Below are positions 4,287 through 62,468 of a stretch of DNA of 64,000 nt, in pieces; within the stretch, counting starts at the first letter, position 1; the number at the start of each line of letters is the position of its first letter. Under the pieces are notes generated by a model. That model had not been told where the DNA came from and made no database searches. It was given only the letters and a program-made list of their open reading frames with translations. Origin of the DNA: a virus; the IMG/VR virus record IMGVR_UViG_3300036790_000211, positions 6,512 to 70,511 of that record, one strand, 5' to 3'. The translations under genes and the position numbers were made by a program.

Positions 4287-4367
4287 CGGCGGGTAGTCCC
4301 CCTTCGGGGAGTCGCCAGGGAGTGCCACCTCACCCAACGACCTACCCAGCCGCACACATGTGAGTCA
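4287..4367 (+). ncRNA. candidate structured leader: three-way junction with UGCCAC loop, plus GUGAGUCA box
   Basis: Pairings 4287-4290/4349-4352, 4291-4296/4342-4347, hairpin 4297-4310, 4311-4314/4338-4341, 4320-4322/4329-4331; loop 4323-4328; box 4360-4367. Confidence 0.5.
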
Positions 4368-4460
4368 GGAGAGAGCACCGTGGTGCGCTCGCCTAGGTGG
4401 CCGAGTCTACCACCCGGCAGGTAATCCCTGTCAATCGATGGTTAATCGGCCAAGTTCCCC

Positions 4461-4489
4461 CCCGGTGCCACCCGGGATGTGAGCAGGAG
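4461..4489 (+). promoter_or_regulatory. UGCCAC-loop hairpin element upstream of bet
   Basis: CCCGG-TGCCAC-CCGGG, then ATGTGAGCAGGAG. Confidence 0.7.
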
Positions 4490-4495
4490 AAGCAG

Positions 4496-5593
4496 ATGTC
4501 GGACACAGCGCTATCCATTCGAACGGAGCCCCAGAAGGCGCGCCTCGCCACCAGGGCCGACCTGTCCTGGACCGAGGAACAGCTCCAGATCATCAAGGAC
4601 ACCTTCGCCGGACAGAAGCTGACCAACCAGGAGTTCGGCGTCTTCATCGAGTACGCGCGGGCGATGCGCCTCGATCCTCTGGCGAAAGAGGTCTACGCCA
4701 CCAAGCGGGACGGCAAGCTGACCTTCCAGACCAGCATCGACGCCTTTCGCCGCAAGGCGCAGGAGACGGGCGAGTACGGGGGGAAGGTCTCGGAGCAGTG
4801 GTGCGGAATAGACGGCGTCTGGAAGGACGTTTGGCTTTCCGACCAGCCTCCGGCCGCCGCCCGAGTGGCGGTCATGCGGCACGGCCACCTGGGCCCGACT
4901 GTGGCCGTGGCCCGCTACAAGTCCTACGTTCAGATGACCAACGACAACGGCCAGAGCCGCCCCAACTTCATGTGGCACAAGATGGCCGACAACCAGCTCG
5001 CCAAGTGCGCCGAGGCCAAGGCTCTGCGCCAGGCGTTCCCCGAGCGGTTCGCCAGCCTCTACATCGACGACGAGATGGACCAGGCCGACAACCCGCCGGC
5101 TCCGCAGCAGGGCGGGCAGCAGCTGCAAGGACCGGGCGACTGGCACCAGCGCAACCAGCAGCAGCAGGCGTCGACCCCGAACGTGTCGTCCGCCGCGAGC
5201 GCACCGTCGCCCTTCAACCAGCAGCAGGTCCAGTCCGTTCCGGCCGACGCGAAGCCGGTCGACCAGGCCCCGGCCCCGGCTCCCCCGGCGGACCCGGCCC
5301 CGGTCCCGGCCCCGGTCCCGGCCCCGGACGGCGTGGTGCCCGGCAGCGATCAGCGCCTGGCGCTGGTCAGTGCGGTGTCGGACCTGGCGAAGCACGTCGC
5401 CACTGAGGGCGGCGCGGCCAAGCTCACGGGCTGGGCGCGAGACAACATCCTCGACCCCGCCGTCAACAACATGAGCGTCGTCGAGCCACTGGCGCTGCGC
5501 TGCGAGAACGAGCACGGCCCCGACTGCGCTGAGGGCACCAGGCTCGCCGCCGCCATCCACAAGGCGATGGGGCCTGCCGAGGCGGCCGCGTGA
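4496..5593 (+). CDS. bet: phage ssDNA-annealing recombinase Bet/RecT
   Basis: LDPLAKEVY...TSIDAFRRKAQETGEYGG...QLAKCAEAKALRQAFPE; AGGAG before ATG 4496. Confidence 0.9.
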   Translation: MSDTALSIRTEPQKARLATRADLSWTEEQLQIIKDTFAGQKLTNQEFGVFIEYARAMRLDPLAKEVYATKRDGKLTFQTSIDAFRRKAQETGEYGGKVSEQWCGIDGVWKDVWLSDQPPAAARVAVMRHGHLGPTVAVARYKSYVQMTNDNGQSRPNFMWHKMADNQLAKCAEAKALRQAFPERFASLYIDDEMDQADNPPAPQQGGQQLQGPGDWHQRNQQQQASTPNVSSAASAPSPFNQQQVQSVPADAKPVDQAPAPAPPADPAPVPAPVPAPDGVVPGSDQRLALVSAVSDLAKHVATEGGAAKLTGWARDNILDPAVNNMSVVEPLALRCENEHGPDCAEGTRLAAAIHKAMGPAEAAA

Positions 5594-9042: not shown

Positions 9043-9461
9043 TGAAGCTCGCTATCAAGATGGGACGGTCGTCGCCGGCGGCGGCCGTCGAGGACTCGTT
9101 ACCGGCGATGCCGGTGAGGGTTGGGGTGGAGCAGCTGGAGGAGGCGTACGAGCCTGCTCCCGTGGCCGAGCCCCCGGCCCCGGTCCGGGTGATCCCCCGC
9201 GACCCGAAGGACCACCGGAGCCCGTTCCTGGTGGAATGGCCGTTCGCGCTGAAGGCGTGGGACATCGCCAAGGAGCGCACGAGACTCGACCCGATCGGCG
9301 TCCGCCTGCAGGTATCGATCCTCGATCGGATCTGCGACTTCACCCGCTCGACCCCGCCGCAGCCGGTCCACGTTAAGGACATCGTCGACGAGGTGCTCGG
9401 GTCCAACTCGCAGGCCATCCAGGACCAGAAGGACGCGATCGCGATAGCTCGCCGTCGTTAG
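9042..9461 (+). CDS. hypothetical protein
   Basis: TGATG coupling to dnaB. Confidence 0.65.
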   Translation: MKLAIKMGRSSPAAAVEDSLPAMPVRVGVEQLEEAYEPAPVAEPPAPVRVIPRDPKDHRSPFLVEWPFALKAWDIAKERTRLDPIGVRLQVSILDRICDFTRSTPPQPVHVKDIVDEVLGSNSQAIQDQKDAIAIARRR

Positions 9462-9481
9462 CATCACGCATGCGATAGCAT
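9461..9481 (+). promoter_or_regulatory. operator-like 21-mer GCATCACGCATGCGATAGCAT
   Basis: 19/21 identical to 62400-62420. Confidence 0.5.
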
Positions 9482-9519: not shown

Positions 9520-9545
9520 GGAGTGCCACCTCCATGTGTGAGTCA
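9520..9545 (+). promoter_or_regulatory. UGCCAC-loop hairpin element sequestering an SD
   Basis: GGAG-TGCCAC-CTCC-ATGTGTGAGTCA. Confidence 0.7.
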
Positions 9546-14859: not shown

Positions 14860-14897
14860 TGCACACACACACGTGAGTCATCTGTCTGTTGGGAGGA
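14860..14897 (+). promoter_or_regulatory. GUGAGUCA box with (CA)n run, no UGCCAC hairpin
   Basis: TGCACACACACACGTGAGTCA, then GGAGGAG. Confidence 0.45.
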
Positions 14898-49107: not shown

Positions 49108-49117
49108 CGGGGCTCCG

Positions 49118-49147
49118 GAAATGAAAAGAGCCGCCCGAAGGCGGCTC
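49118..49147 (-). terminator. intrinsic terminator immediately upstream of the methylase/terminase block
   Basis: GAGCCGCC-TTCG-GGCGGCTC-TTTTCATTTC. Confidence 0.8.
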
Positions 49148-49168
49148 CTGCCACATGGAATCGGACCT

Positions 49169-49768: not shown

Positions 49769-49847
49769 ATCAGAACCTCCACACGAGGATGGTGATCAGC
49801 TGGGTCGTGTTGCCCCAGACGACTCGGACCGTCTCCCAGATCCACAT

Positions 49848-50174: not shown

Positions 50175-50536
50175 TGACACGCCTCGCAGACGTCGCCATC
50201 CGGCTCTTCGACCGGCATCGCGGCGACGTACACGGAGAAGTGGTCCTGCGACCAGTTGCCGGTCGGCTTGCCGGGGAACGGGTTCCCGTGACCGGACAGG
50301 CTCACGCTGAACCGCTGGAGCCCCTGCTCCTTGACCAGCCAGAGGGCGGCACCGAGAGCCTTCGCCGCGGCCGACATCTGGGCCTCGTGCATCTCCTCTT
50401 CGATCTCGTCCGGCAGTCGACCGCCAGGCCGCGTGAAGCACGCCTTCCAACCCCTGCGGGCCTCGGCGATCGCGGCGTGGCCCAGCTCTTCGAGGGTGTC
50501 GGGGGTGGAGTCGGAGACGGAGATCGAGAAGGACAT
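50171..50536 (-). CDS. hypothetical protein
   Basis: AAGGAG SD. Confidence 0.65.
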   Translation of the reverse strand: MSFSISVSDSTPDTLEELGHAAIAEARRGWKACFTRPGGRLPDEIEEEMHEAQMSAAAKALGAALWLVKEQGLQRFSVSLSGHGNPFPGKPTGNWSQDHFSVYVAAMPVEEPDGDVCEACQ

Positions 50537-50932
50537 TCAGGCGCTCCTTGGGGCGGATTCGGGGAGTGACTCGACGGCGCTGCGGCGGCAGAGCCGGATG
50601 AGGCCGTCCCAGCCGGACGCGTTGAGGCGGCAGCAGGCATGGGTGACGGGCTCAGGGGTGTAGTCGGGGCGGTTGCGGCGCGGGTTCTCGTCCCAGAGGA
50701 AGCAGGCCGTCATCAGGCCGTTGGTCACGCTCATGGGGAGGATCGGGTCGGCCCGCCGCCAAGAGTCGGTGATCTGCTGCCAGTGCCGGTCGCAGATGAA
50801 GCGCCCGGGCCGGACCTTGCTGAATCCACCGTGGCGGGGCATCGGCCAGGGACGGGTCAGGCGACCGATGTTCTCCGCCACCTGGCGCCGGCTCATGCCG
50901 CCCAACCAGAGGCGCGTCTCTTCGTTGGTCAC
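50537..50932 (-). CDS. hypothetical protein
   Basis: GTGA overlap, codon bias. Confidence 0.55.
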   Translation of the reverse strand: MTNEETRLWLGGMSRRQVAENIGRLTRPWPMPRHGGFSKVRPGRFICDRHWQQITDSWRRADPILPMSVTNGLMTACFLWDENPRRNRPDYTPEPVTHACCRLNASGWDGLIRLCRRSAVESLPESAPRSA

Positions 50933-51114
50933 TCCCAGGCGCCCTCGGCCCACCGCTGGTAGGCGAATCGGTCGATGCGGTGGACGTCGGCTTCGAGCTC
51001 GACCTCGTGGGACTTCTCGTCGCGAGCGATGTGCTGGTTGACCGGGTTGCGGCGGAGGACCTGGAAGTAGCCGATAGGGTCGCGCTCCTTGGCCCAGCGC
51101 ATGAACTCGCGCAA
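50929..51114 (-). CDS. hypothetical protein (start uncertain)
   Basis: Coding-like frame coupled to the next gene. Confidence 0.4.
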   Translation of the reverse strand: MREFMRWAKERDPIGYFQVLRRNPVNQHIARDEKSHEVELEADVHRIDRFAYQRWAEGAWE

Positions 51115-51167
51115 GGTTGCTGGAGGCCGTGTATCTGTTATCGGCCGGTCGTGGTCGTCCGCGCAGT

Positions 51168-51824
51168 TCAGGAGGGGGGCAAAACAGTCCAATCCAGCTG
51201 CTCCAGGCGTGTTTTTGGCCGGTTTCGGGACGTAGTGGTGCGATTTGGGCCGGTTTTGGCCTGAAAACGGGCTCGTTCCCGCCGGATCCGCGCGATTTCG
51301 CGCTCCGCGGTGCGCGCTGCGGAGGTCTTGGTGGCGATCGGCGCGGCCTCGCGGCGCACGGTCCTCGAGGCTCGCTTGAGCGCGTGCCGGACGCTGCCCG
51401 CATCCCATGGGCGGCGGCCTTCCGGGGCCATCACGCGGGCGATCTCGTCGAGGTCGATGCGCATCCCTTCGACGCCGTATCCGTCCATGAGCGCGACGAA
51501 CGCGGCCAGGTGCGACTTCGGGAGCGTGGACAGGGCGCGCAGCACGTCGAGGCGGAAGTTGATCGCGGCGAACGGGTTGCTCGTCGACTCGGGGACGTCG
51601 AGCTGGCTCAGCTCTGCGATCCACTCCCAGGTGCAGAGCGCGGCGGGCCGGGGCAGGTCCGCCGGCTCCTCGACCCCCTCGGAGGTTTGCCGGGAGACGT
51701 GGGCCGCGTTGCGCTCCGACCAGTCCTTGAAGCGCCGGGTGTTCTCCCAGGCGGCTCCGAAGTAGAGCGCGTCGAGCTCGAATGCGACGCCGGCGAGCGG
51801 GCCGCCGGTGAAGCGGTCAGGCAT
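51168..51824 (-). CDS. sigma70 region-4-like DNA-binding protein
   Basis: LRALSTLPK...LDEIARVM...GSVRHALKRASRTVR. Confidence 0.65.
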   Translation of the reverse strand: MPDRFTGGPLAGVAFELDALYFGAAWENTRRFKDWSERNAAHVSRQTSEGVEEPADLPRPAALCTWEWIAELSQLDVPESTSNPFAAINFRLDVLRALSTLPKSHLAAFVALMDGYGVEGMRIDLDEIARVMAPEGRRPWDAGSVRHALKRASRTVRREAAPIATKTSAARTAEREIARIRRERARFQAKTGPNRTTTSRNRPKTRLEQLDWTVLPPS

Positions 51825-52086
51825 CGCCAACTCCTTGCGCCGCCACCTCTGCGGCAGTCGGGGCATCTTCCGGATGGTGCTTTCGACAGACAACCCAGGT
51901 CGTCCCGTCGACCTGGTGCCGACCGACCCTCCAGCACCCCTTGATGTGGCAGGTGTGGCGCCAGTAGAGCGTGAACGCCGCCCCGAGGAGGCCGAGATCT
52001 CCAGCGACCCCGCTCCACCACGCGTACCAGGGGCCACTCACGTTCGTGATGCCGAGGACGTTCAGGATCGCCCCCAACGCGGCCAT
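51817..52086 (-). CDS. membrane protein with Cys/His tail
   Basis: SGPWYAWWSG...CHIKGCWR...CRKHHP. Confidence 0.65.
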   Translation of the reverse strand: MAALGAILNVLGITNVSGPWYAWWSGVAGDLGLLGAAFTLYWRHTCHIKGCWRVGRHQVDGTTWVVCRKHHPEDAPTAAEVAAQGVGDA

Positions 52087-52538
52087 CAGGCGAGTCCTCC
52101 GAGATGTGCGGCTCCCCATGCCGCCCCGCCGGCGGCGATGAGCAGGGCAAAGGTCTGGGCGTAGGCGCGGATCCCGGCGTGGTCAGGGCGCAGATGCGAG
52201 ATGACGATGGCGGCGGCTCCGATCACAACCGCGGCCAGGGCGATCCCGAGCGCACCCGGGAGAAGTGCGTATGGGAGGGCGGGCGCGAGCGCTCCGAGCA
52301 AGGTTGCTACCCCCATCACTGCGGCCCGCCGGACTCGGCCCGGCCCTCCCCTGTCGCCGAGGTACTGGCCTGACGCCATGCTCACCGCGTTCCCCGCGGC
52401 GCCCGCTGCGCAGGCACCGAGGACGATCCCCGGCGAGGCATGCGTGGCGATCAGGCCGAGCAGCACCCCCATGGTGCCGCTCAGCCCGTCGAAGCCGCCG
52501 AATGCGGCGTCGCCCAGCTCCTCAGCGGTCAGGTTCAC
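52086..52538 (-). CDS. VIT1/CCC1-family Fe2+/Mn2+ transporter
   Basis: LGDAAFGGFDGL, GNAVSMASGQYL, GALAPALPY; about five TM. Confidence 0.85.
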   Translation of the reverse strand: MNLTAEELGDAAFGGFDGLSGTMGVLLGLIATHASPGIVLGACAAGAAGNAVSMASGQYLGDRGGPGRVRRAAVMGVATLLGALAPALPYALLPGALGIALAAVVIGAAAIVISHLRPDHAGIRAYAQTFALLIAAGGAAWGAAHLGGLA

Positions 52539-52828
52539 GCGGCGGCGGCCTCTGCGGGTGCGGGGGTGAAGCTCTGCGCGAACGAGGCGTCCGGCACGGG
52601 CAGGGCGCCCTTGGCCGTCTCCACGACGCGCGAGTTGAGCTCCACCGGCTCCCACTTCCGCGAGGTGCTGTTGAAGACCTCGACCTGCGGGGCGTCGGCC
52701 ATTCCGGTCGTGATCGCCCGCGCCGGGATCCCCAGCCCGTCCAGATCGGCGAGCAGGCCGTCGTAGGTGGTGATCACGTCGGTCGCCCTGACCTTGACGG
52801 GGATGTGAACGAAGTCGCTGAACTGCAT
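52535..52828 (-). CDS. hypothetical phage protein
   Basis: AAGGAG SD. Confidence 0.65.
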   Translation of the reverse strand: MQFSDFVHIPVKVRATDVITTYDGLLADLDGLGIPARAITTGMADAPQVEVFNSTSRKWEPVELNSRVVETAKGALPVPDASFAQSFTPAPAEAAAA

Positions 52829-52839
52829 GCGTGTGCTCC

Positions 52840-53181
52840 TTATGGCGAGGTGTCGTCCGCCCGTGTATCGGGAGGACCCCAGAAGAGGTGCCCGATCAGC
52901 GACCCGGCCGCGATCAGGCCAATGCCCATCCACCAGGGATGCGTGTGCCACGTCTGCCTGGTGCGCTGAGTAATGGGCTTCCACGCCGTCCAGAGGGCGG
53001 CGCTCTCGTAGGCGAGGAAGGGGACCGACCCGGCCAGGGCGAGCGATGCTGAGCCGTAGAACGCGGTGTCCTCGGCGGGCGTTGCTTCGATCCCCTTCTT
53101 CGCGGCGAGCGCAGAGAGCAGGGCCGCGGCTCCCGCAGCAGCTGCGAAGGAGATCGCCCCGGTGGCGTTGCGCTGCCTCAT
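52840..53181 (-). CDS. membrane protein
   Basis: Three hydrophobic segments; GGAGG SD. Confidence 0.6.
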   Translation of the reverse strand: MRQRNATGAISFAAAAGAAALLSALAAKKGIEATPAEDTAFYGSASLALAGSVPFLAYESAALWTAWKPITQRTRQTWHTHPWWMGIGLIAAGSLIGHLFWGPPDTRADDTSP

Positions 53182-53543
53182 CAGCACCGCCTCCCGTCGC
53201 TGCGCCACCGACAGCGCAGCCCCACCCCTTCGTAGGCTGCATGGAACGTCAGGTCGTCGAGGTGCCAGAAGAGATGTTTGCCGCCGCGCTCGATGTGTAG
53301 CAGCCAGTAGTGAGGCTCGAGCACGAACGTCGGCGTTTCCCACGGCTCGATCCACAGGTCGCTATCGGTAGACAGAGATGTCCTCGGGGCGGTGGTGTAG
53401 CCCTTGCAGATCGGGAAGGCCGACACGGCCGCGGTCCCTCTCCTGCAGAAGCCCAGGAACTCCCGGATGTCCTCGCCGTTCTTGCCGTCGAAGTAGATCG
53501 CATCGACCTCCGGGGACTGTCGGAGCCGGAACTTGCTCCTCAC
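53181..53543 (-). CDS. hypothetical phage protein
   Basis: EVDAIYFDGKN...FHAAYE. Confidence 0.6.
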   Translation of the reverse strand: MRSKFRLRQSPEVDAIYFDGKNGEDIREFLGFCRRGTAAVSAFPICKGYTTAPRTSLSTDSDLWIEPWETPTFVLEPHYWLLHIERGGKHLFWHLDDLTFHAAYEGVGLRCRWRSDGRRC

Positions 53544-53890
53544 GGCTTGACGTCCTCCTTGGCGGGGATTAGAAGCAGGATCTGGCCGTCGTACTCGCCG
53601 TCGAAGTCGTCGAGCAGGGCAGCGATCCCGTGGAGCTTCATCTGCTCGGGCTTCCACTCCTTCGGGTCTTGGTGCGGCGCACCCTTGGCGCGGAAGAAGG
53701 CGAAGTCCGGCTTGTGATAGCCGGCCGTGTCCCACTCCTCGAGGGATGCCTGCTCCTTGGACTCGTCTCGCTCGCTGAGGATCCCGACCTGGAATCCCGC
53801 CTTGCGCAGCCCCTTGGCGATCGGGCCCAGGAGCTCCGGGAAGGCCAGCGCGGTCCCGTCGAGGTCGAAGGCGACGCGTGCGGCGCTCAT
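53540..53890 (-). CDS. HAD-superfamily hydrolase (capless)
   Basis: AFDLDGT, ILSER, K, LLDD. Confidence 0.8.
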   Translation of the reverse strand: MSAARVAFDLDGTALAFPELLGPIAKGLRKAGFQVGILSERDESKEQASLEEWDTAGYHKPDFAFFRAKGAPHQDPKEWKPEQMKLHGIAALLDDFDGEYDGQILLLIPAKEDVKP

Positions 53891-54027
53891 CGGCCCATCG
53901 CCTTGATCACGACCTCCCCCACGGCGAGCACGAAGACCATGAGCAGGCAGGCGACGCCGAGGACCTTGATCGCCAGGTCGAGGGCGGCGTTTACCCGCGT
54001 CAGCCGCATGCGAGTGCGCAGCTTCAT
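53887..54027 (-). CDS. 46-aa membrane protein
   Basis: ATGA overlaps, one TM. Confidence 0.6.
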   Translation of the reverse strand: MKLRTRMRLTRVNAALDLAIKVLGVACLLMVFVLAVGEVVIKAMGR

Positions 54028-54248
54028 CGGACGTGGACGTAGCCGAGGAGGACCAGGATCACGACGACGGCGACGGCGACGAGGGCCAGTGCGGCGACCC
54101 GCGTCGCGTTCTTGACGATCGCCTCGGCGGCCACATACAGGGCGACCATGGCGAGGACCACAGCGATGCCGAGGAGGGCGAATGGAGCGGTCACGCAGAC
54201 CAGCAGCAGGAAGGCCGCAGACCGGCCGACCGAGCCCCAGCCTTTCAT
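54024..54248 (-). CDS. small 2-TM protein
   Basis: Hydrophobic, ATGA overlap. Confidence 0.6.
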   Translation of the reverse strand: MKGWGSVGRSAAFLLLVCVTAPFALLGIAVVLAMVALYVAAEAIVKNATRVAALALVAVAVVVILVLLGYVHVR

Positions 54249-54358
54249 AGCCAGCCCCACAGGGCGCGGCCGAGGATCACGACCCCAGCGACCGCGACGG
54301 CACCGATGAAGACCAGACCCCAGTAGGCCGTCCAGTGTTTCCGGGAGATCTTGCTCAA
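54245..54358 (-). CDS. 37-aa membrane protein
   Basis: AAGGAGG + TTG, one TM. Confidence 0.6.
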   Translation of the reverse strand: MSKISRKHWTAYWGLVFIGAVAVAGVVILGRALWGWL

Positions 54359-54906
54359 GCCGCCTCCTTCGCGGGGATGGATCGGAGTGCCCACCCGAGC
54401 TTCGAGCTCCAGTTGGGCTTGCTCAGGTGGAGCCAGGTGGGCGGCTTGCCCATGGTCTTGGCCTCGACGATGTGGTGCTTGAGCTGGGCCGCGGGCTTGC
54501 GGTCCTTCTCGCCGGCGAAGCTGCGCACGTTGCGGTCGACGGTGATGCGCACGCCCTCGTGCTCCCACTCGGTGCGGTGGTAGCGGACGACGGCCAGGGG
54601 GGTGAAGCCCTGCTTGGCGATCTCCGCCCGGTTGGCTCGGGAGCGCTCCTTGTGGACCGTCCGGCCGACCTTGGTCTTCTCCTCGTAGAACCAGGGACCG
54701 GCGCCGTTGTAGCGGCGTAGGCGGCAGTTGACGCCGGGCTTCCCTGGGTGCGCGAGGTAGACCGTCTGGACGTGGTAGCTCCGCGTCCTCGCCCGGCCTC
54801 TCAGGTCTTTGAGGAGGCTCTGGGCGCGGTCAGGCGCAACGCGCCACCGGCGCTCCCGGCGGACGAACAGCTCCTGAAAGAGCTGAACCTCACCCGGGTT
54901 GGGCAC
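54355..54906 (-). CDS. VTC-domain (CYTH/triphosphate tunnel) protein
   Basis: VQTVYL, RLRRY, EEKTK, KER, VRYHR, RITVDRNV, IVEAK, SK. Confidence 0.75.
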   Translation of the reverse strand: MPNPGEVQLFQELFVRRERRWRVAPDRAQSLLKDLRGRARTRSYHVQTVYLAHPGKPGVNCRLRRYNGAGPWFYEEKTKVGRTVHKERSRANRAEIAKQGFTPLAVVRYHRTEWEHEGVRITVDRNVRSFAGEKDRKPAAQLKHHIVEAKTMGKPPTWLHLSKPNWSSKLGWALRSIPAKEAA

Positions 54907-54926
54907 GGTCGCACACGGCTATCGGG

Positions 54927-54944
54927 GCAGGGGTGGCACCCTGC
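54927..54944 (-). promoter_or_regulatory. UGCCAC-loop hairpin at the 5' end of the long leftward operon
   Basis: GCAGGG-TGCCAC-CCCTGC. Confidence 0.7.
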
Positions 54945-54970
54945 GTCCGGCTCTCCATGACTCGCCGCGG

Positions 54971-55000
54971 ACTTTAGCAGGAGCATCGAATAGTTTGCAA
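54971..55000 (-). promoter_or_regulatory. sigma70-type promoter
   Basis: TTGCAA-18 nt-TAAAGT with TGn extension. Confidence 0.55.
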
Positions 55001-55120
55001 ACAAACTTTCTGGCAGGAGCCCCCTGGGGCGGACCGGTTCGGGCCGCTTGCGGTTGCTCACCACGCGCGCGCGCGCAGAACTGCGCATGTGCGCGAGGCA
55101 GGAATCCCAGGCTGGGGGCA

Positions 55121-55162
55121 AAGGAAAGGCCCCGTCCAGGGGAGAAACCTGGACGGGGCCTT
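55121..55162 (-). terminator. terminator hairpin
   Basis: Perfect 15-bp stem 55126-55140/55148-55162. Confidence 0.65.
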
Positions 55163-55247
55163 GGTCGTGTCGCGGGTGTAGCAGTCCGCGATGAAGCTCC
55201 TACATCGTATCACTCATGCGCACGATGCGAGCGCATCAGATGTGTGC

Positions 55248-55466
55248 TCACATCACGCATTCGGGGATCGGCTCCAAGCCGTTATCCCTGCGGCAATCGT
55301 TGATGTAATCGCGGACTCCGGCGCGCCCCCAGCACTCGGGGCACGCCTTCTCGGCGATGGCCCAAGAGGGCTCCTGGCGGCCCGTGGCGCGATGGATCTC
55401 GACCACCAGCTCGAGGCACGGCTTCCACTCGTGGCAGAACTCGCAGACGTGATCGACGAGATTCAT
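55248..55466 (-). CDS. small Zn-finger protein
   Basis: CEFC...CPEC; ATGA overlap. Confidence 0.55.
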   Translation of the reverse strand: MNLVDHVCEFCHEWKPCLELVVEIHRATGRQEPSWAIAEKACPECWGRAGVRDYINDCRRDNGLEPIPECVM

Positions 55467-56197
55467 GCGGCTTCTCCCTCGGCCTGCAGGGAGGACCGGA
55501 CGCGCTGGACGGTGGAGGTGCCGATGCCCAGATGCTTGGCGATCGCGGCGTCGCTCTTGCCGGAAGTCCACGGCTGGCCCAGGGCCTCCGCGGCCAGCTG
55601 GGCGGCGCCCGGCTGGGTGGGTCGGGCGGTGTTGCCCTTGTCGGTCTGCCCATCGCCCACCTGCCCAGACTCGTTGCCCTTGGGCAGCCGCTTGGGCGGA
55701 TCCTTGGGCAGGTCCTGGTCGCGGGTGGTGGGCGGTTGGGTGGGCTGCGCCTGCTCACGGTTGGGCAGGTGGTCAGCGATCGCCTGGGCAGGGTTCCACT
55801 TCGCATGCCGGCCGTGGAGCATCCAGTACCAGCAGCCCAGGGCGAGGAGCGGGGGGAACGTGTGGGCGTAGAAGGCGAGCGGGTTGCCCACGTGGTGGAA
55901 GACGTTGAACAGGATCGAGGTGCCCGCGCAGAAGGCGGCGAGTGCCCAGGCGCCCCAGCTGGGCGTGTTGCGGGTGGCCGACTCTCGGGCGAGGAACACG
56001 GCGACGAGCTCGCCCAGGTCGGTGATCGCTCCGACCCCGCGGGCCTCCCAGAGGGTGTAGCCCAGGGTCGAGACGCTGGCGACCTGGGCGAAGTAGCTCA
56101 CGCCCATGGCTATGACGGTGATCGCCCAGACCCCCAGCTCGGCGGAGTAGCTACGCCAGGTCGTCTTGCCGACGACGGCGCGCTTCGGCTTGCTCAT
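55463..56197 (-). CDS. DUF2637 (Spd-like) membrane protein with C-terminal HTH
   Basis: SY...L...A...D pattern, S..FNV.H, PPL; SDAAIAKHLGIGTSTVQRVR. Confidence 0.7.
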   Translation of the reverse strand: MSKPKRAVVGKTTWRSYSAELGVWAITVIAMGVSYFAQVASVSTLGYTLWEARGVGAITDLGELVAVFLARESATRNTPSWGAWALAAFCAGTSILFNVFHHVGNPLAFYAHTFPPLLALGCWYWMLHGRHAKWNPAQAIADHLPNREQAQPTQPPTTRDQDLPKDPPKRLPKGNESGQVGDGQTDKGNTARPTQPGAAQLAAEALGQPWTSGKSDAAIAKHLGIGTSTVQRVRSSLQAEGEAA

Positions 56198-56202
56198 GGT
56201 TC

Positions 56203-56234
56203 TCTCCTGACTCACTGGCCCGGGTGGCACCGGG
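56203..56234 (-). promoter_or_regulatory. UGCCAC-loop hairpin element
   Basis: CCCGG-TGCCAC-CCGGG-CCA-GTGAGTCAGGAGA. Confidence 0.75.
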
Positions 56235-56245
56235 GTGGACGTGGC

Positions 56246-56548
56246 TCAATCTTCGATGCCCAGCGCGGCCTTCTTCTCCCGCTCGTACCTGGCGACGGCA
56301 GTGGCCTTGTCGATAGCGTCGATCTCGGCTCGGCGCTGCTCCGCTCTCGGCAGGAGCTCCGGGACCGAGTGCTCCTCTCCCCTGCGCCGGCGGACCCAAT
56401 CGGAGTCTGCGGCCCACTCATCCCAGTTCTCGAGCGCCAGCCGGACCTCAGCAGCATCCGGGCGCCCGTTCTCCTGCGCCCGCTTGTGCAGTCGCTCCCG
56501 TAGCGCGGTTGGCACTCTCACTATCATGCGGTTGTCGTTGTCTGCCAT
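56246..56548 (-). CDS. ribbon-helix-helix (Arc-like) protein
   Basis: RMIVRVPTALRERLHKRAQENGR.DAAEVRLALE. Confidence 0.75.
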   Translation of the reverse strand: MADNDNRMIVRVPTALRERLHKRAQENGRPDAAEVRLALENWDEWAADSDWVRRRRGEEHSVPELLPRAEQRRAEIDAIDKATAVARYEREKKAALGIED

Positions 56549-56567
56549 TGGCATGCATTGTATGCCA
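56549..56567 (-). promoter_or_regulatory. leaderless -10 (TACAAT) inside a palindrome
   Basis: TGGCATGCA-T-TGTATGCCA; TACAAT 8 nt before ATG. Confidence 0.6.
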
Positions 56568-56569
56568 TT

Positions 56570-57170
56570 TTCTCATCAGGATGTTGGTTCAGGATTTTCA
56601 GGAATTGAGGATGTTGGGAAGTTCTTCAGTCGAGAGAGGAGGGACCCCTTTCCTGTTTTTGACACACCGCGGCATATAAAAAGCCCCCCCGGCCCCGAAC
56701 AGGCGTACGGCAGGTGGCCGGCTTGTGCTGAGGCTCCTCATCTTGTTGCGTGGTGAATATTGGCAGGTCTCAAATTGGCGGTTGGCTCCCACGTGGTGGT
56801 GGTCTGCCAAGTGGGAGCTCGACATCATGTGCGTGCATGCATGCGTGGCGTGTGGATATGTAAAGCCAGGCTCGACATGACGGCTATTGAATACCCACAT
56901 CTGTACTCAGGCATGGCTCGATGTCTGGATATGGGTTTGCTCCAATTACGTAAAGTAGTGCTTTACATATTGATTGCGGGCGCCATAGTTTCGTTTATGT
57001 ATGCGTCGCTTTCGTTTCTGGAATTGCTCCCCCGCGTACGTGCGTCCAATTCGCGCGTACGCGTGTGCGATATCCGGGGTTACTACTACACCGTTCCTGA
57101 CAGGTACATCAGCAAGCGGGCATGCCCGGTCTTTCGGGCCGGTCCGCTTGCTGTCTACGTATCCACTTGA
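56570..57170. other. low-GC intergenic block with alternating purine-pyrimidine tracts
   Basis: Visibly AT-richer than the flanks; no convincing ORF. Confidence 0.55.
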
Positions 57171-57506
57171 CGAAGAGGAGACAGAGAGCGCTCTCGGTAC
57201 GGGAGCGATCCGTTGGGGTTGCCCGATCCGCCACGGACGTGGCTTGACGGGCTACCGGGGACGGGGGGGACGTCTACCACCGCGCGCGGGTGCGAGCGTA
57301 CGGGCGCACACGGAGCGCACACGGCCACGGAGCCGGACGCGGGAGCGTAGCGCGAGCCATCCCCGCCAGCCGCCCATCCGTGGCCGTACGCTCGATCTGA
57401 GAGCCCCAGAACGCCCGTTCCCCAAACACCCGTACGTCTTAACAACTCTTTGCAACTTCCGGGACAAGTTGCTCCCAAAACGGCCCACACGCCGCTGCGA
57501 CGTGGT

Positions 57507-57520
57507 TAGAATGGGTACCA
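57507..57520 (+). promoter_or_regulatory. leaderless promoter TAGAATGGGTACCA
   Basis: Immediately before ATG 57521; identical to 7642-7655 (-). Confidence 0.65.
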
Positions 57521-57718
57521 ATGAACAGCACGAACGGCAAGCCGAGCGCAGAGACGATGTACGCGGTGAGGAGCGAGAGCGGATCGTTCGTAGGACAGTG
57601 GAACAACCTGTGCCAGGCGGAGAGCGAGGCTCGGGTCTGGGCCAGGCGGCACGGCCAGGACGCGACCGTCAGGACCGGATACTCCGGACAGGTGATCTAC
57701 AGCACCACGACGCGCTAG
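57521..57718 (+). CDS. hypothetical protein
   Basis: Follows the promoter. Confidence 0.6.
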   Translation: MNSTNGKPSAETMYAVRSESGSFVGQWNNLCQAESEARVWARRHGQDATVRTGYSGQVIYSTTTR

Positions 57719-57790
57719 CGACCGACACGAGCCTGGCCCTGGGTTTGACGGGCCAGCTGGCGCGGCAGGTACCGCGCACATTCAACATCC

Positions 57791-57826
57791 GGCCCTGCCA
57801 CGGGCCCACATGTGATCAGAGGAGAG
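57791..57826 (+). promoter_or_regulatory. UGCCAC-loop hairpin element (C-G closing pair)
   Basis: GGCCC-TGCCAC-GGGCC-CACATGTGATCAGAGGAGAG. Confidence 0.75.
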
Positions 57827-57832
57827 TTTTCG

Positions 57833-58552
57833 ATGGCAGATCAGTACACAGCCGTTGCGCCCCGCTTCAACCGCGATCAGATCGAGCGGAAGGTCTACCG
57901 CATCCTGGTCATCGAAGCCTTCCAGGGCATGGAGAAGTACCTCCCCTCCGAGGGCGAGCTCTCCGAGTCCGTCCAGGCATCGATGGTCGAGGGCCTGACC
58001 GAGGCCGGGGTTGAGCACTACGTCCACCAGGGAGTCCTGAGCGGAGCACCCGCGATCATGCAGGTTCCCGGTTCGAAGGAGAAGGTCAAGGTCTACTCCT
58101 CCGAGTTCGTCCACCTGTACGCGACGAAGCCTGTCCTCCCCTCCGCTGGCGGCGCGGCATCCAAGCCGAAGAATGACGCGCAGCGGTACGCCCTCATCGC
58201 GTCCACCCTCCGCCAGGCGGAGAAGGACGGCCTGTCCGTCGACAAGACCCGCGAGGCGTTCAAGGTCGCGGCGACGACCGCGGACTTCAAAGAGATGGTC
58301 ATGGACGCCATGTGGGCGGACATGGAGGACCGCGTGATCCAGAATCGCGCCGAGCAGGCGGCCAAGGCTCAGGCCAAGGTCGCGGAGGCCGCCGCGGCCC
58401 TTCAGGCAGCGATCGCGGAAGGCGAGACCGAGGGCACCGAGCCCGTCGCCGAGCCGGAGGACGTCGACCACACGGCCGCCCTGGAGGCCGCAGGCCTGGA
58501 CCTCGACGAGGACCAGGACGCGGAGGACGAGGACGGCGAGGACCTGGAGTAG
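57833..58552 (+). CDS. hypothetical protein with acidic tail
   Basis: GAGGAG SD, strong codon bias. Confidence 0.75.
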   Translation: MADQYTAVAPRFNRDQIERKVYRILVIEAFQGMEKYLPSEGELSESVQASMVEGLTEAGVEHYVHQGVLSGAPAIMQVPGSKEKVKVYSSEFVHLYATKPVLPSAGGAASKPKNDAQRYALIASTLRQAEKDGLSVDKTREAFKVAATTADFKEMVMDAMWADMEDRVIQNRAEQAAKAQAKVAEAAAALQAAIAEGETEGTEPVAEPEDVDHTAALEAAGLDLDEDQDAEDEDGEDLE

Positions 58553-58570
58553 AACCTCACTCCTCTGATC

Positions 58571-58593
58571 GGGGCGGGCAACGTGCCCGCCCC
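58571..58593 (+). terminator. GC-rich hairpin
   Basis: 10-bp stem; no clear U tract. Confidence 0.4.
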
Positions 58594-58622
58594 ATCTCCC
58601 CCGCAGTCTCAGGAGGTCCGAC

Positions 58623-58949
58623 GTGATCGTTTCCCAGGCCGGCACGTATTCCGAGTTCGCGGCGCTCCTCGCGGCGTCCCATTCCAACGCGGCGGATGCT
58701 CTCAAGTCCGGAGCGCTCAAGGTGCGCGTGGCGCCTGCTCCCAAGCACGAGGTCGAGCGCGGCCTCGACGCCACGCGGCTCCCATGCGGACCGGTGAGCG
58801 CATACCGGCCACGCGTCGAGCTTGTGACGAAGTCAGACCGGATCGCGGAGCGCGAAGCTGCCGAGCAGCTGGCGAGCAGGCACCCGGTCGCGGTGCGGCG
58901 AGAGGTCGCGGAGGCCCTGCGCGGCCTGGCGCGAGCCGGGAGGAGTTGA
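58623..58949 (+). CDS. hypothetical protein
   Basis: AGGAGG SD. Confidence 0.6.
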   Translation: MIVSQAGTYSEFAALLAASHSNAADALKSGALKVRVAPAPKHEVERGLDATRLPCGPVSAYRPRVELVTKSDRIAEREAAEQLASRHPVAVRREVAEALRGLARAGRS

Positions 58950-59028
58950 TGGCGAAACCGAGCCCGGACCTGGGGTTTATGGTCCGGCGAGCGCGGCCCT
59001 CGATTTGGCCGACATGCGGAGGTGAGAC

Positions 59029-59121
59029 GTGTTCGGATTCTGGACGTGGAACGCTGACGGCTCGACCGGATTCGCGGTGCGCCTGTTCGGGCACCTCTTC
59101 GAGGCTTGGAGGCAGTGGTGA
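59029..59121 (+). CDS. 30-aa Trp/Phe-rich peptide
   Basis: GGAGGTGA SD; MFGFWTWNADGSTGFAVRLFGHLFEAWRQW. Confidence 0.5.
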   Translation: MFGFWTWNADGSTGFAVRLFGHLFEAWRQW

Positions 59122-59345
59122 TCCTGACCGGACACATCGGCCCCGACTCGAAGATGAGGCCGGTAGGCAGGGAGAGGCGATTCAAGGTCTCGCGGGGCCG
59201 GGGAGGTTCCCCCAGGCCCGCGACCACGAACGAGCTCCAGGAAGGCTCGACGAAATGGTGGAACAGGACCATGCGGCCGCGGATGGCAGAGGCCCTGAGC
59301 GAGTACCACGAGCAGCTGCGCGCCGAGCGCATGGAGGTGGCGTGA
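59115..59345 (+). CDS. hypothetical protein
   Basis: GGAGG SD, coupling. Confidence 0.5.
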   Translation: MVILTGHIGPDSKMRPVGRERRFKVSRGRGGSPRPATTNELQEGSTKWWNRTMRPRMAEALSEYHEQLRAERMEVA

Positions 59346-59644
59346 TGCCCGGCGAGGAGGTGTGGAACGCGACCGGCGAGCAACTGACCCTGCCCGACTA
59401 CGGCAGCGGCTTCACCCTGGAGCTGATGGAGGACGGGCGGCTTGTGCTGGAGTCCGGCGACGAATACCTGCGAGCGCTGACCGTGGAGGACGAGGACCGG
59501 CTCCTCGCGCTCCTGGAGGGGCGGCGGCGCCGGCGTCATGAGGTTCGGGTCGATCCGCTGACCGAGGAGCCGATCCCAGTCGACACCATCGCCTACTGGC
59601 GAGAGCGCCTGAGTCACAGCAAGTGGCTCGACGAGATCAGGTAG
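59345..59644 (+). CDS. hypothetical protein
   Basis: TGATG coupling, GGAGG SD. Confidence 0.65.
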   Translation: MPGEEVWNATGEQLTLPDYGSGFTLELMEDGRLVLESGDEYLRALTVEDEDRLLALLEGRRRRRHEVRVDPLTEEPIPVDTIAYWRERLSHSKWLDEIR

Positions 59645-59677
59645 ACACGGACGTCCGTTCGTAGCACCATATAGCCC

Positions 59678-59713
59678 TGGCCGGTGCCACCCGGCCACAG
59701 TGAGTCAGAGGAG
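59678..59713 (+). promoter_or_regulatory. UGCCAC-loop hairpin element upstream of helicase
   Basis: TGGCCGG-TGCCAC-CCGGCCA-CA-GTGAGTCAGAGGAG. Confidence 0.75.
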
Positions 59714-59722
59714 ACGTCCCGG

Positions 59723-62200
59723 ATGCAGCTCAAACTGCGCATCGGTCGAGGCGCGAGCACCTCCAAGCCGAAGCCACCTCCCCCACCTCCCGAGCCGGAG
59801 GGCCCTGTGCTCCAGCCGACGTCGGTCGAGGAGTGCCTCATGGTCCTGACCGCGGCTGATCAGGACCGGGCGCGAGAGGACAACGGGATCGGCTGGAGCG
59901 GATTCGACAGCGACATCGGGCACCGGCTCGCGGCGAAGGCGCAGGCAGGACGGCTGAATCCGTGGGACCGGCTACGCGCCTACAACAAGCTGCACAGGTA
60001 CAGGAAGCAACTGGAGCGCGCCGGCCTGGACTTCTCCGGGATGAAGCCACCTCCCGAGCCGATCGCACCCGAGCCGGTGCGCGAGGTCAGCGTGGTCAAG
60101 GAGGGCGTGTACGCTGGCTGGTTCTCGGTCAAGGTCCAGCACGTATCGCAGCCTGAGTGGAACCAGTACCAGGACCAGCGGTCGATGCTGGCCGGGCGGC
60201 GCGTGGAGGTCATCGACGGAGTCCGCGTGACCCTGGTACCGCCCGACGGATCGAGTGCTCGCACGATGGCGAAGTTCATCGAGCGGACGGAGGACTTCGC
60301 GGTCGAGGCCCAGGTGGGCGAGCGCTTCGAGGAGCTGTTCGGCAAGGCCGAGCGCTTTGCGAAGATGAGCCGAGCGGTCGAGCCCTCCGCCGAGTGGGAG
60401 GCGACCGATCCCCGCATGTTCGACGCCCAGAAGGCCGGTGAGGAGTACGTGCTCGCCGGGATGGCCGAGCGTCTGACGACCGGCGAGGGCAGCGGCGTCC
60501 TGATCGGAGATGACATGGGAACGGGCAAGACCGCGACCGACCTCCTCTCCGCCTACCGCGCGGGAGCCTTCACGACCGGCATCCTCGGCCGCAAGGGCAT
60601 GCTCGTGATCTGCCCGGCAGGCATCAAGCTCAACTGGGAGCTGGAGGCGCATCACTGGCTGGGGCGCTGCATCGATCCTGACTGCCGGCGCGGACCTGTC
60701 TGCCGCGAGGCCTCATGCCCGGACGCGGCGCCCGACAAGGACCACCGCCACCCTGCGCATAGGCCGGGCCCGGACGGCGAGGCCGCCACGTGGGACCGGA
60801 TGCACCGGTGCTGGAACGTGGCCGAGCCCCTGGTGCCTGACTTCTCGGTTCAGGTCCTCGACGGCATCAACGCCCAGATGATCATGGGCGACCTGGTCGT
60901 GGCGAACTACGACATCCTGCGCTGGCAGAAGGGCACCGAGGACGAGCTCAACGACGTCTCGATGTTCCTGTCGATGCGCAATTGGGCGGCGATCTCCTGT
61001 GACGAGTTCCACGCCTGCAAGAACCCAGAGGCGATGCGGACGAAGGTCGTCAACGAGATCATCGGAGCCGTCAGCCCACCGTTCCTCACCGGCATGACCG
61101 GCACCTTCGTCCTCAACCGGACGGCGGAGGCGTTCCCGCAGTTGAAGATCCTCGACTGCCTGACCCACTTCGGATCAGGCCACGCGGCCGAGGCTCGCTA
61201 CGTCCACGGATCGCCGGAGGACAAGCAGGAGTTCAACCGCAAGCTGCGCGAGCTTGGGTGCTACCTGCAGCGGCCGAAGCGCTCGCAGGTCATGGACCCG
61301 CAGCAGCACGTGCTCCCGCTCGACAAGGTGCCGAGCTTCCACCTCCCCGACCGGCTGAGAGTCAGCGGCCAGTCCGGGAACATGGTTGCGAAGGAGCACC
61401 TGGCCGAGGCCCGCTCGATCCTCGAGGGGCTGGGCTACGAGTGGATCGCCGGAGCCATGGACGCGGAGCTTCAGAACCGCATCGAGCAGGTCGAGATCAT
61501 GGAGGCCGACGAGACGAAGATGGCCGACTACGAACGCTGCCTTCGCGAGTTCCAGACCTGGTACGCGACGGAGCTGCAGGGCAAGTTCGGGGACGGCTGG
61601 GGCGAGCGCTGGAAGCGCGGGATGAACGGAGAGGCCCTGGTCAAGCTCAACAAGCTGCGCGAGGCCACCGTCCGCGTGAAGCTCAAGAGTTCCGCCAGGT
61701 GGGCCGAGACGATCATCGAGAGCGGCGAGAAGCTGGTGCTCTTCACCTGCCACGAAGAGAGCCGCGCCTACCTCATGAAGAAGCTCGCGCCGTGGAGCCC
61801 CGCCAGCATCTACGGCGGAATGACCCCAGCGCAGAAGCAGGAGTCGATCCGCGAGTTCCAGACCAATCCCCGCTGCATGGTGATCGTGGTCCAGCTCCTC
61901 TCGGGGGGCGAGGGCATCAACCTCACCGCAGCGCACCACGTCGCCATCGTGGAGACGTACTGGAACGGCGGCAAGATCGACCAGGCCGCGGCCCGCGTCG
62001 ATCGCGGTGGACAGGACCACGACGTGGTGATCCACCACCTCTACGCGGACCAGACGGTCGACCGGAAGATGGCTGAGCGCTGCCAGAAGAAGGCCCTGGA
62101 GACAGCGGCCGTCATCAACGGCGGCGAGGTCGAGACCTCAAAGCTCTGGGTCGAGCTCATGGACATCGCCCTGGGCGTCGAGCCGGCGGTGGCCGCATGA
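59723..62200 (+). CDS. SNF2-family helicase
   Basis: DDMGTGKT, ICPAGIKLNW, DEFH, MTGT..LN, GGEGINLTAA, QAAARVDR.GQ. Confidence 0.9.
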   Translation: MQLKLRIGRGASTSKPKPPPPPPEPEGPVLQPTSVEECLMVLTAADQDRAREDNGIGWSGFDSDIGHRLAAKAQAGRLNPWDRLRAYNKLHRYRKQLERAGLDFSGMKPPPEPIAPEPVREVSVVKEGVYAGWFSVKVQHVSQPEWNQYQDQRSMLAGRRVEVIDGVRVTLVPPDGSSARTMAKFIERTEDFAVEAQVGERFEELFGKAERFAKMSRAVEPSAEWEATDPRMFDAQKAGEEYVLAGMAERLTTGEGSGVLIGDDMGTGKTATDLLSAYRAGAFTTGILGRKGMLVICPAGIKLNWELEAHHWLGRCIDPDCRRGPVCREASCPDAAPDKDHRHPAHRPGPDGEAATWDRMHRCWNVAEPLVPDFSVQVLDGINAQMIMGDLVVANYDILRWQKGTEDELNDVSMFLSMRNWAAISCDEFHACKNPEAMRTKVVNEIIGAVSPPFLTGMTGTFVLNRTAEAFPQLKILDCLTHFGSGHAAEARYVHGSPEDKQEFNRKLRELGCYLQRPKRSQVMDPQQHVLPLDKVPSFHLPDRLRVSGQSGNMVAKEHLAEARSILEGLGYEWIAGAMDAELQNRIEQVEIMEADETKMADYERCLREFQTWYATELQGKFGDGWGERWKRGMNGEALVKLNKLREATVRVKLKSSARWAETIIESGEKLVLFTCHEESRAYLMKKLAPWSPASIYGGMTPAQKQESIREFQTNPRCMVIVVQLLSGGEGINLTAAHHVAIVETYWNGGKIDQAAARVDRGGQDHDVVIHHLYADQTVDRKMAERCQKKALETAAVINGGEVETSKLWVELMDIALGVEPAVAA

Positions 62201-62412
62201 CCACCTCCACCTTCACGACCGGAACGTCCGGCCTCTGCCAGGACTCCAGCTGCGGGGCAATCGCCCCGCCGCTGGAGGAGCGCCTGCAGGCCGGCTGGGT
62301 GATCCACGTCAACCAGCAGGGAGAGGCGTGCGGCTGGACTTGCCCCGCCCACTCGCGGAAGCGCCGACGGCGTGCGGAGACACGAGGAAAGATGCGATCG
62401 CATCACGCATGA
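62197..62412 (+). CDS. small Cys-containing protein
   Basis: ATGA overlap. Confidence 0.5.
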   Translation: MTTSTFTTGTSGLCQDSSCGAIAPPLEERLQAGWVIHVNQQGEACGWTCPAHSRKRRRRAETRGKMRSHHA

Positions 62413-62425
62413 GATCGCATACAAT
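62400..62425 (+). promoter_or_regulatory. operator-like 21-mer overlapping TACAAT -10
   Basis: GCATCACGCATGAGATCGCAT-ACAAT. Confidence 0.55.
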
Positions 62426-62434
62426 GTAGTCAGA

Positions 62435-62468
62435 CCCGGGTGCCACCCCGGGAAGTGAGTCAGGAGGA
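62435..62468 (+). promoter_or_regulatory. UGCCAC-loop hairpin element
   Basis: CCCGGG-TGCCAC-CCCGGG-AA-GTGAGTCAGGAGG. Confidence 0.75.

Follow-up and report, generated by a model that had tools for sequence, protein, structure and literature searches.

What reads a hairpin that one phage genome repeats, with the same loop each time, at nine of its intergenic sites? The question is raised by a 64,000-nt stretch of viral DNA (the window), bases 6512-70511 of the IMG/VR virus record IMGVR_UViG_3300036790_000211, in which nine hairpins share the loop TGCCAC (UGCCAC as RNA) and most are followed by a conserved box at the ribosome-binding site that includes the Shine-Dalgarno (SD) sequence. We found that the stems covary around the unchanging loop and that the strand opposite the first hairpin carries the promoter-like, terminator-like and folding signals of a small antisense RNA, whose predicted unpaired parts are complementary to both loop and box. 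By our estimate there is about an even chance that the hairpins and boxes are the target sites of one phage-encoded, trans-acting antisense RNA that blocks translation. More tentatively, and at clearly less than an even chance, this RNA of ~120 nt would be the master reader of a genome-wide translational regulon of nine hairpins and at least ten boxes, before early and late genes alike, with a hexaloop kiss followed by covering of the SD. If so, genes for recombination, a helicase, capsid and tail would all come under the control of one RNA, in a regulon much larger than those of classical phage antisense RNAs.

Nine hairpins with one loop and covarying stems

The hexamer TGCCAC is not itself enriched in the genome (31 copies, 35 expected); its placement on a stem is. 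TGCCAC closed by a stem of at least 3 bp occurs nine times (mean 0.82 and largest count 4 in 300 dinucleotide shuffles of the genome), and with a stem of at least 4 bp eight times (mean 0.24, largest 2). At eight copies it is the commonest hexaloop of the genome, the next loop having three. Rough gene calls place 12 of the 31 sites between genes and nine of those 12 are the hairpins, while none of the 19 coding sites forms one. All nine are intergenic and lie on the sense strand of the downstream gene, as a first-pass annotation of the window had proposed; that annotation also gave all nine positions and stems correctly.

Its claim of covariation held up equally well. In an ungapped alignment of the nine copies, 77.8% of stem cells are paired compared to 48.2% after shuffling (0 of 500 shuffles reach 77.8%), seven of seven stem pairs change on both sides, and the covariation score of 0.69 falls to 0.29-0.39 when the partner is slid by one column. 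G-U pairing in the stems is limited to a single terminal U-G at 42111. A covariance model, run without filters over the window and the first 6.7 kb of the record, scored the nine copies at 22-28 bits and the next best site at 14.5 bits, and minimum-energy folds retained the hexaloop hairpin in 10 of 10 local contexts. The covariation shows the hairpin itself to be under selection, with its stems selected for pairing. Between the 3' arm and the start codon lie 19, 20, 21, 23, 25 and 26 nt in six of the nine copies, and 0, 39 and 48 nt in the other three; across the 32 kb from 9.5 to 42.1 kb there is no copy.

Hairpin 1 (4323; GAG-TGCCAC-CTC, 4320-4331, plus strand) has the weakest sense stem, scores 23.2 bits and is embedded in a larger three-way structure opposite the candidate antisense RNA. 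Hairpin 2 (CCCGG-TGCCAC-CCGGG, 4461-4476, plus) ends 19 nt before the RecT ATG at 4496. Hairpin 3 (9524; GGAG-TGCCAC-CTCC, 9520-9533, plus), whose region includes a 13-nt stretch identical to 4319-4331, is followed directly by an ATG at 9534; at the level of sequence (9520-9536), the SD-like GGAG is thus the 5' arm itself and the ATG comes right after the 3' arm, as annotated. Hairpin 4 (42111; CCCGGGG-TGCCAC-CCCCGGG, 42104-42123, minus) stands between an upstream late gene and the Gp23-type capsid gene, which has a likely GTG start at 42064. Hairpin 5 (54933; GCAGGG-TGCCAC-CCCTGC, 54927-54944, minus) follows the promoter-like sequence TGCTAAAGT. Hairpin 6 (56224; CCCGG-TGCCAC-CCGGG, 56219-56234, minus) comes directly after a putatively leaderless gene of the ribbon-helix-helix type, with 21 nt left to the ATG at 56197, and hairpin 7 (57796; GGCCC-TGCCAC-GGGCC with a flipped closing pair, 57791-57806, plus) follows a putatively leaderless 65-aa gene, 26 nt before the ATG at 57833. 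The SNF2 helicase ATG (59723) lies 25 nt past hairpin 8 (59685; TGGCCGG-TGCCAC-CCGGCCA, 59678-59697, plus). Hairpin 9 (62441; CCCGGG-TGCCAC-CCCGGG, 62435-62452, plus) begins 9 nt past the last base of a TACAAT -10-like hexamer (62420-62425) and ends 23 nt before a GTG at 62476. A degenerate second hairpin (CGTG-TGCGAC-CGTG, 54904-54917, minus; five of six loop bases matching) was seen 9 nt past hairpin 5, its 3' arm holding the predicted GTG start of a VTC/CYTH-like gene that has no SD.

The second conserved part, GTGAGTCA(GGAG) or a close variant, is present at the ribosome-binding site after eight of the nine hairpins (54933 being unclear), in line with the annotated idea of a multi-gene set tied to ribosome-binding sites. 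Exact GTGAGTCA occurs in seven copies, each in sense and upstream of a start, and the exact 12-mer GTGAGTCAGGAG in four, with no further site at one mismatch and the next matches at two or more. An exact box follows five of the nine hairpins and a variant three (4479, 42089 and 57812). The box with its SD, CACATGTGAGTCAGGAG, lies 28 nt past hairpin 1 (4355-4371, plus); the variant GTGAGCAGGAG follows hairpin 2 (4479-4489, plus), and the GTGAGTCA copy at 9538-9545 (plus) falls just within the predicted open reading frame (ORF). Upstream of the capsid gene, the variant GTGAACCGAGTCAAGGAG (42071-42089, minus) is preceded by CAGCCGCACAC, which it has in common with the 4323 module. The remaining boxes are GTGAGTCAGGAG at 56204-56215 (minus), the variant GTGATCAGAGGAG at 57812-57824 (plus), GTGAGTCAGAGGAG at 59700-59713 (plus) and GTGAGTCAGGAG at 62455-62466 (plus).

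Two boxes stand apart from the nine hairpins: a GTGAGTCA at 14873-14880 (plus) without any hairpin, and an exact GTGAGTCAGGAG at 31496-31507 (minus) upstream of a putative major tail gene. A 6-bp hairpin with the loop AGCCAA (31536-31553) lies 34 nt upstream of the latter; it had been counted as a variant copy at 31542 (minus), but at 10.7 bits and an E value of 4.6 it is noise as a hairpin, although a perfect box follows. An extra CCGCACAC before the box is common to the long-spacer copies 4323 and 42111 and to this box-only tail-gene site. In the first 6,700 bases of the record, which lie outside the window, a box variant GTGAGTCGAAGGAG was also seen at 5529 (plus) upstream of a gene at 5598.

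Several readings of the box and loop were tried and set aside. The ATGTGA start-stop noticed in three boxes is indeed there (4357, 4476 and 57809), in only 3 of ~11 boxes, and an upstream ORF ending at the box TGA was rejected since no consistent ORF stops there. GUG, formed by the closing G and the first two loop bases, is in frame with the downstream gene in about one-third of copies when judged by eye, as expected by chance, and was rejected as a start; a pseudoknot between loop and box was rejected by reasoning, the linker being merely 2-5 nt. We also set aside the box as an extended SD, since it would not be complementary to the 3' tail of 16S ribosomal RNA. As a separate observation, two short promoter-proximal ORFs of 40 and 22 codons (4241-4363, plus, and 54955-54890, minus) each cross a hairpin and end where a box or box-like sequence has its TGA; the earlier of the two has a low G+C content at third codon positions (GC3). 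They are probably not genes and might be translated leaders.

Promoter-like -10 sequences occur within 100 nt upstream of four of the nine hairpins (4323, 9524, 54933 and 62441), with 54933 and 4323 lying ~18 and ~85 nt past the expected transcript starts, and four others (56224, 57796, 59685 and 42111) come after the stop codon of the preceding gene. Since some copies follow promoter-like sites and others stop codons, the element is tied to translation starts and not to transcript 5' ends or terminators. Scans of the window for consensus promoters and terminators gave nothing useful at the hairpins, and a search for direct repeats nothing relevant.

A candidate antisense RNA opposite hairpin 1

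A promoter-like -10 directed against a module, at a distance of no more than 350 nt, was found for hairpin 1 only (TAGACT, 4409-4404, minus). It forms part of a candidate promoter at 4404-4434 (minus) consisting of TTGACA, a 19-nt spacer and TGgTAGACT. The pattern TTGACA-N16-19-TANNNT has this single match in 64 kb on both strands, with 0.08 expected and at least one match in 7 of 100 shuffles, and the same site is also among the six TGNTANNNT extended -10 sites of the window. About 120 nt past the promoter, and 3 nt past the closing stem of a stable antisense structure, lies T7 (4283-4277, minus); neither strand of the window has another run of at least six T. The resulting UUCUUUU-type tail resembles the tails of other terminator-like hairpins of the phage. 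Together these signals delimit a candidate RNA of ~122 nt, with predicted ends at 4398 and 4277 (minus).

In its predicted fold, the RNA would consist of a 5' hairpin, a single-stranded ACUCACAUGU, a 12-bp hairpin with the loop GUGGCA (the antisense of 4311-4341), a second hairpin, an outer stem and a UUCUUUUUUU tail. The GUGGCA loop, an exact complement of UGCCAC, and ACUCACAUGU, a complement of the box, are both unpaired in that fold. The antisense strand folds at -59.8 kcal/mol (z = -2.83, matched by 1 of 200 shuffles) with five G-U pairs, compared to -47.4 kcal/mol (z = -1.52) and no G-U pairs for the sense strand. The sole ORF on the minus strand there (4393-4647) has a first-codon-position G+C content (GC1) of 0.44 compared to 0.69 in RecT and looks like a shadow ORF of RecT, so the terminator would serve no protein gene. 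An antisense gene at this place would also explain the oddities of copy 4323, namely its 3-bp stem, its 28-nt spacer, its burial in a three-way junction and the doubtful 14-codon ORF that follows it.

We propose leftward transcription of this RNA of ~120 nt, starting at ~4398 and ending at 4277, antisense to the module's first copy. First contact would come from the apical GUGGCA loop of the RNA, through a 6-bp loop-loop kiss with any UGCCAC loop, after which the single-stranded stretch (...CUCCUGACUCACAUGUG...) would pair with the box and the SD; pairing over both would block 30S binding and possibly invite cleavage. The proposed targets are RecT, the 9534 gene, the capsid and tail genes, the helix-turn-helix (HTH) gene at 55463, the 57833 gene, SNF2 and the 62476 gene. 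Under such a mechanism the stems would be free to vary because their sole task is to present the loop, and loop and box would be frozen because every copy must fit one RNA. Repression of this kind would suit a temperate or plasmid-like phage, with its integrase and ParA/ParB genes, that keeps its lytic genes silent.

When the start regions of 93 genes were compared, the longest perfect complements to the RNA spanned 15 nt (55463), 13 nt (9534), 12 nt (62476 and 31007) and 11 nt (capsid), all at module genes, with 6-7 nt as the background elsewhere. The top seven duplex energies with the 34-nt open part of the RNA all belong to module or box genes (-46.9 to -38.9; median -26.1). Box variants differ by indels of 1-5 nt, and bulged duplexes with the RNA are expected from pairing by eye.

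A number of points weigh against this proposal. The complementarity to the targets and the pairing with box variants are circular, because any antisense transcript of one module is complementary to it and the modules share motifs; they show a capacity to pair, not its use, leaving only the promoter, the T run, the antisense fold and the unpaired loop and anti-box as independent support. The promoter spacer of 19 nt is long, and the terminator-like structure is branched at a three-way junction, with no simple hairpin, and was not called by the terminator scan. The antisense strand folds better at 42111 too (-55.0 compared to -37.2), where no antisense promoter was found, and part of the antisense energy advantage is compositional. 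Loop and anti-box are separated by 28 nt in the RNA but loop and box by 2-5 nt in most targets, so that simultaneous use of both contacts would need refolding. The action of the RNA might be limited to the RecT leader, in cis, and none of the relatives examined carries the element. That the RNA is produced, that it acts in trans and that it represses translation we infer in each case from the sequence.

Alternative readers and the genomic setting

The main rival is that a protein of the phage or host reads the UGCCAC loop, perhaps along with the box, and either represses or activates the translation of the gene downstream, in the manner of the HTH and ribbon-helix-helix regulators that bind leader hairpins of anti-CRISPR operons; we consider it unlikely, though ahead of the other alternatives. 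PMC13551039 describes Aca1 and Aca2 as HTH proteins that bind RNA hairpins ending ~20 nt before the start, and six of the nine copies here lie at 19-26 nt. Genes for small regulators adjoin several hairpins (HTH_3, 3884-4174; Arc/FitA-like, 56246-56548; HTH_23, 55463-56197), and stems of only 3-4 bp (4323 and 9524) keep the exact loop, as if a factor clamped it. Against this, Aca motifs have conserved stem pairs, read like DNA, and here the stems vary freely. Hairpin-box spacings of 2-34 nt and the indels in the box are hard to fit to one protein site, and the antisense promoter, the terminator and the antisense fold would be left unexplained.

The protein searches, moreover, produced nothing that points to the loop-specific protein invoked in the first-pass annotation. 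Among 80 of the ~110 predicted proteins compared to Pfam we found no RNA-binding, sigma or RNA polymerase family, and 10 proteins compared to PHROGs likewise gave no RNA-binding family. A 239-aa early protein had no match in atlas and PDB sequence searches, and a scan for basic peptides returned a few small basic ORFs, none of which could be linked to a hairpin. The gene names themselves were partly revised: the Gp23-type capsid and SNF2 assignments stood, the gene called bet is RecT and not Bet, the gene called DUF2637 has only an HTH_23 match, and the name 'tail tube' has gene position as its sole basis.

Less probable still, and in our view improbable, is a signal with no specific reader, acting in cis for processing or stability or as a structural insulator, where it would shield the downstream message or stop GC-rich RNA upstream from masking the SD, and spreading as a gene-start cassette like the PeSLs (promoter-early stem-loops). 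Such a cassette has a precedent in the repeated composite regulatory cassettes that PMC4122927 describes, in its account of PeSLs, from T4-type genomes. It would fit hairpins that stand at junctions without translational coupling and keep their fold in all 10 local contexts, and it would fit the capsid locus, where relatives couple the capsid gene to the gene upstream and the module seems to have been gained in this lineage. Insulation or a block to exonucleases, however, needs no invariant loop, and stems of 3-4 bp are too weak against nucleases. Stems that have fully diverged around 6 + 12 identical nucleotides argue instead for sequence-specific recognition.

The evidence for that gain comes from the relatives. 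Capsid protein homologues were found at 40-63% identity, and 14 IMG/VR loci of capsid relatives, all at no more than 58% local identity, had no TGCCAC hairpins; most of the nine loci looked at in detail have a capsid start placed directly at the stop codon of the preceding gene. Given relatives without the element and with directly coupled capsid genes, the hairpin copy before the capsid gene was gained in this lineage. In relatives with 35-48% capsid identity (loci L019-L031), the 160 nt upstream of the capsid match mostly showed a capsid start at or overlapping the stop of the preceding gene (TAATG, TGATG, TAGATG), and no intergenic element. The hairpin covariance model gave nothing convincing on five whole relative records.

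Broader searches were also negative. No match reached the gathering score in Rfam 15, and none of the 12 matches at E values up to 10 lies at a hairpin, at a box or at 4277-4434, which agrees with the earlier judgement that this is not a recognised family. Pattern scans for the composite element returned eight loci in IMG/VR (all low-GC, no hairpins), 23 in GTDB genomes (none with hairpin and box together) and 24 in JGI metagenomes (none a hairpin). Two guessed stem patterns matched at least 119 and 90 IMG/VR loci, with several copies in none of them among the matches listed. No relative of the SNF2 protein was found in metagenomes, and DNA and protein searches of a phage collection found nothing close among cultured phages. 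Text searches of the literature, with supplementary files outside the search, found no description of a UGCCAC hairpin of this kind.

Antitermination of the nut/put type, in which the hairpin, alone or with a phage protein, would let RNA polymerase pass terminators, had been suggested in the first pass and is a poor fit that we regard as very unlikely. Hairpins 57796 and 56224 do come after the first small gene of the rightward and leftward early units, much as nutR and nutL do in phage lambda. There are nine sites, however, of which three share one rightward operon (57796, 59685 and 62441) and one stands in the late operon before the capsid gene. The sites are tightly linked to the SD and start, six of the nine ending 19-26 nt before it; the loop is a hexaloop and no pentaloop, and the linear box, with the SD in it, comes after the hairpin. 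Most copies have no terminator after them, and no N- or Q-like family was found among the scanned proteins.

We give equally little credence to a hairpin acting as single-stranded or cruciform DNA, in replication, recombination or recognition by a hairpin-reading polymerase and with its strand bias set by an origin at 56.5-57.5 kb: the sense strand would be the lagging-strand template if replication starts in the 972-bp gap there, and the stems lack any G-U pair that would prove RNA, bar the terminal one at 42111, but the scanned proteins include no phage RNA polymerase or primase family, all copies lie 0-48 nt from a start codon with eight of nine joined to an SD box, and the 32 kb devoid of copies speak against it too.

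That gap (56549-57520) is non-coding, separates divergent early promoters and lies inside one of the two 2-kb windows of lowest G+C content (0.624-0.625); it may be an origin or control hub. All seven TA[GC]AAT hexamers are intergenic, and extended -10 TGNTANNNT sites are depleted (6 compared to 14.2 expected), with six of six in intergenic regulatory gaps. This depletion and confinement, together with the placement of TA[GC]AAT, suggests selection against stray promoters in coding DNA. Several TA[GC]AAT hexamers have a start codon 8 nt on, which suggests leaderless first genes at 57521 (plus), 56548 (minus) and 49330 (minus). Pairs of TAGAAT or TACAAT with a start ~8 nt on were seen at 57507-57523 (plus), 7655-7636 (minus), 4227-4243 (plus), 56562-56546 (minus) and 49345-49328 (minus), and three of these -10/start sites share TAGAATGG(G/T)TACCA. 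Operator-like palindromes adjoin promoter-like -10 sites at 62391-62425, 9461-9481 and ~55204-55230 (minus), with GATGCGATCGCATC and the 12-mer GCATCACGCATG (9461 and 62400) directly upstream of TACAAT or TAGCAT and a related CGCATGAGTGATACGAT on the minus strand near 55210. A phage repressor probably binds these palindromes, which do not belong to the hairpin and box system.

The source record is a 70,511-bp virus with 127-bp direct terminal repeats and 67% G+C. Its window encodes a Gp23-type capsid, a T4-type terminase, RecT with a PD-(D/E)XK nuclease, DnaB, ParA/ParB, an integrase-family gene, SNF2 and several small HTH and ribbon-helix-helix genes, and 10.5% of it is non-coding by rough GC3-based gene calls. 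In the first 6,700 bases of the record, a NUDIX hydrolase gene (4571-5269, minus) opposes the surrounding rightward operon. The phage is listed for two soil-metagenome DNA runs and for no RNA run, and its host is probably a high-GC soil bacterium. A near-identical variant in one DNA run (X2) has ~120 single-base differences across 44001-64000; none of the 40 listed of 123 hits a hairpin or box, a comparison that is uninformative on their conservation because only ~0.7 were expected there. At window positions 63322-63390, the same variant has a 67-nt stretch swapped for 145 other letters.

Comparison with known systems

The lambda nut sites resemble the element in that they, too, are sense-specific RNA hairpins whose loop is fixed while the stems are free, and in that they lie early in two divergent early units. 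There, a boxB pentaloop is preceded by a linear boxA, whereas here a hexaloop has its box, with the SD, on the 3' side. They differ further in loop sequence, in copy number (nine here, not one per early operon) and in the link to a start codon found here.

PeSLs, as PMC4122927 presents them, are likewise repeated composite modules at gene boundaries of phages with a Gp23-type capsid and are linked to gene gain and loss. A PeSL combines a sigma-70 promoter with a terminator-like stem-loop, whereas the conserved partner here is the SD box and only three to four of nine hairpins follow a promoter-like site. The Aca1 and Aca2 operators are short hairpins in the 5' untranslated region that repress translation from ~20 nt before the start, according to PMC13551039, and in six of nine copies the end of the hairpin here is similarly placed. 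In the Aca systems an HTH protein recognises conserved pairs of the stem, and each operon has a single hairpin; the element here has many copies in one genome, a fixed loop and free stems, with both sides changed in all seven pairs.

In layout, the element is closest to the start-associated sequences (SAS) of Cluster K mycobacteriophages and their ESAS, in which an asymmetric motif containing the SD likewise comes shortly before some of the starts, always in the same orientation. About half of SAS copies have an inverted repeat immediately upstream, and their function is given as unknown in PMC3203893 and PMC12699233. The likeness is one of layout, not of homology. The 13-bp SAS consensus GGGATAGGAGCCC is absent, with 25 matches at up to three mismatches in the window compared to 32 expected and none at a start, and the two are distinct in sequence, as had been stated. 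In the 17-bp inverted repeats of ESAS, the arms are conserved and the spacer varies, whereas here covarying arms flank an invariant loop, a pattern that points to RNA.

In mechanism, repression by the proposed antisense RNA is closest to that by the C4 RNA of phages P1 and P7 (immI) and the CI RNA of P4. These are likewise small phage RNAs whose exposed parts are complementary to repeated targets at ribosome-binding sites. They hold back lytic or anti-repressor functions. For the candidate RNA here, the DNA shows promoter-like, terminator-like and folding signals and complementarity to the sites. Rfam holds the C4 family, and because no Rfam match was obtained even at E values up to 10, the candidate is no homologue of these RNAs. 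C4 and CI act on two sites in one operon, compared to ~9-11 targets across early and late operons here, and recognition here, unlike theirs, would join a hexaloop kiss with anti-SD pairing. The account in PMC8198154 has C4 antisense RNA as required for full repression of ant. Start-associated phage repeats, SAS/ESAS and PeSLs among them, have been known for more than 10 years without a mechanism. In this genome, a candidate small RNA that is the exact complement of both conserved parts supplies a specific reader, and one that could be tested at little cost.

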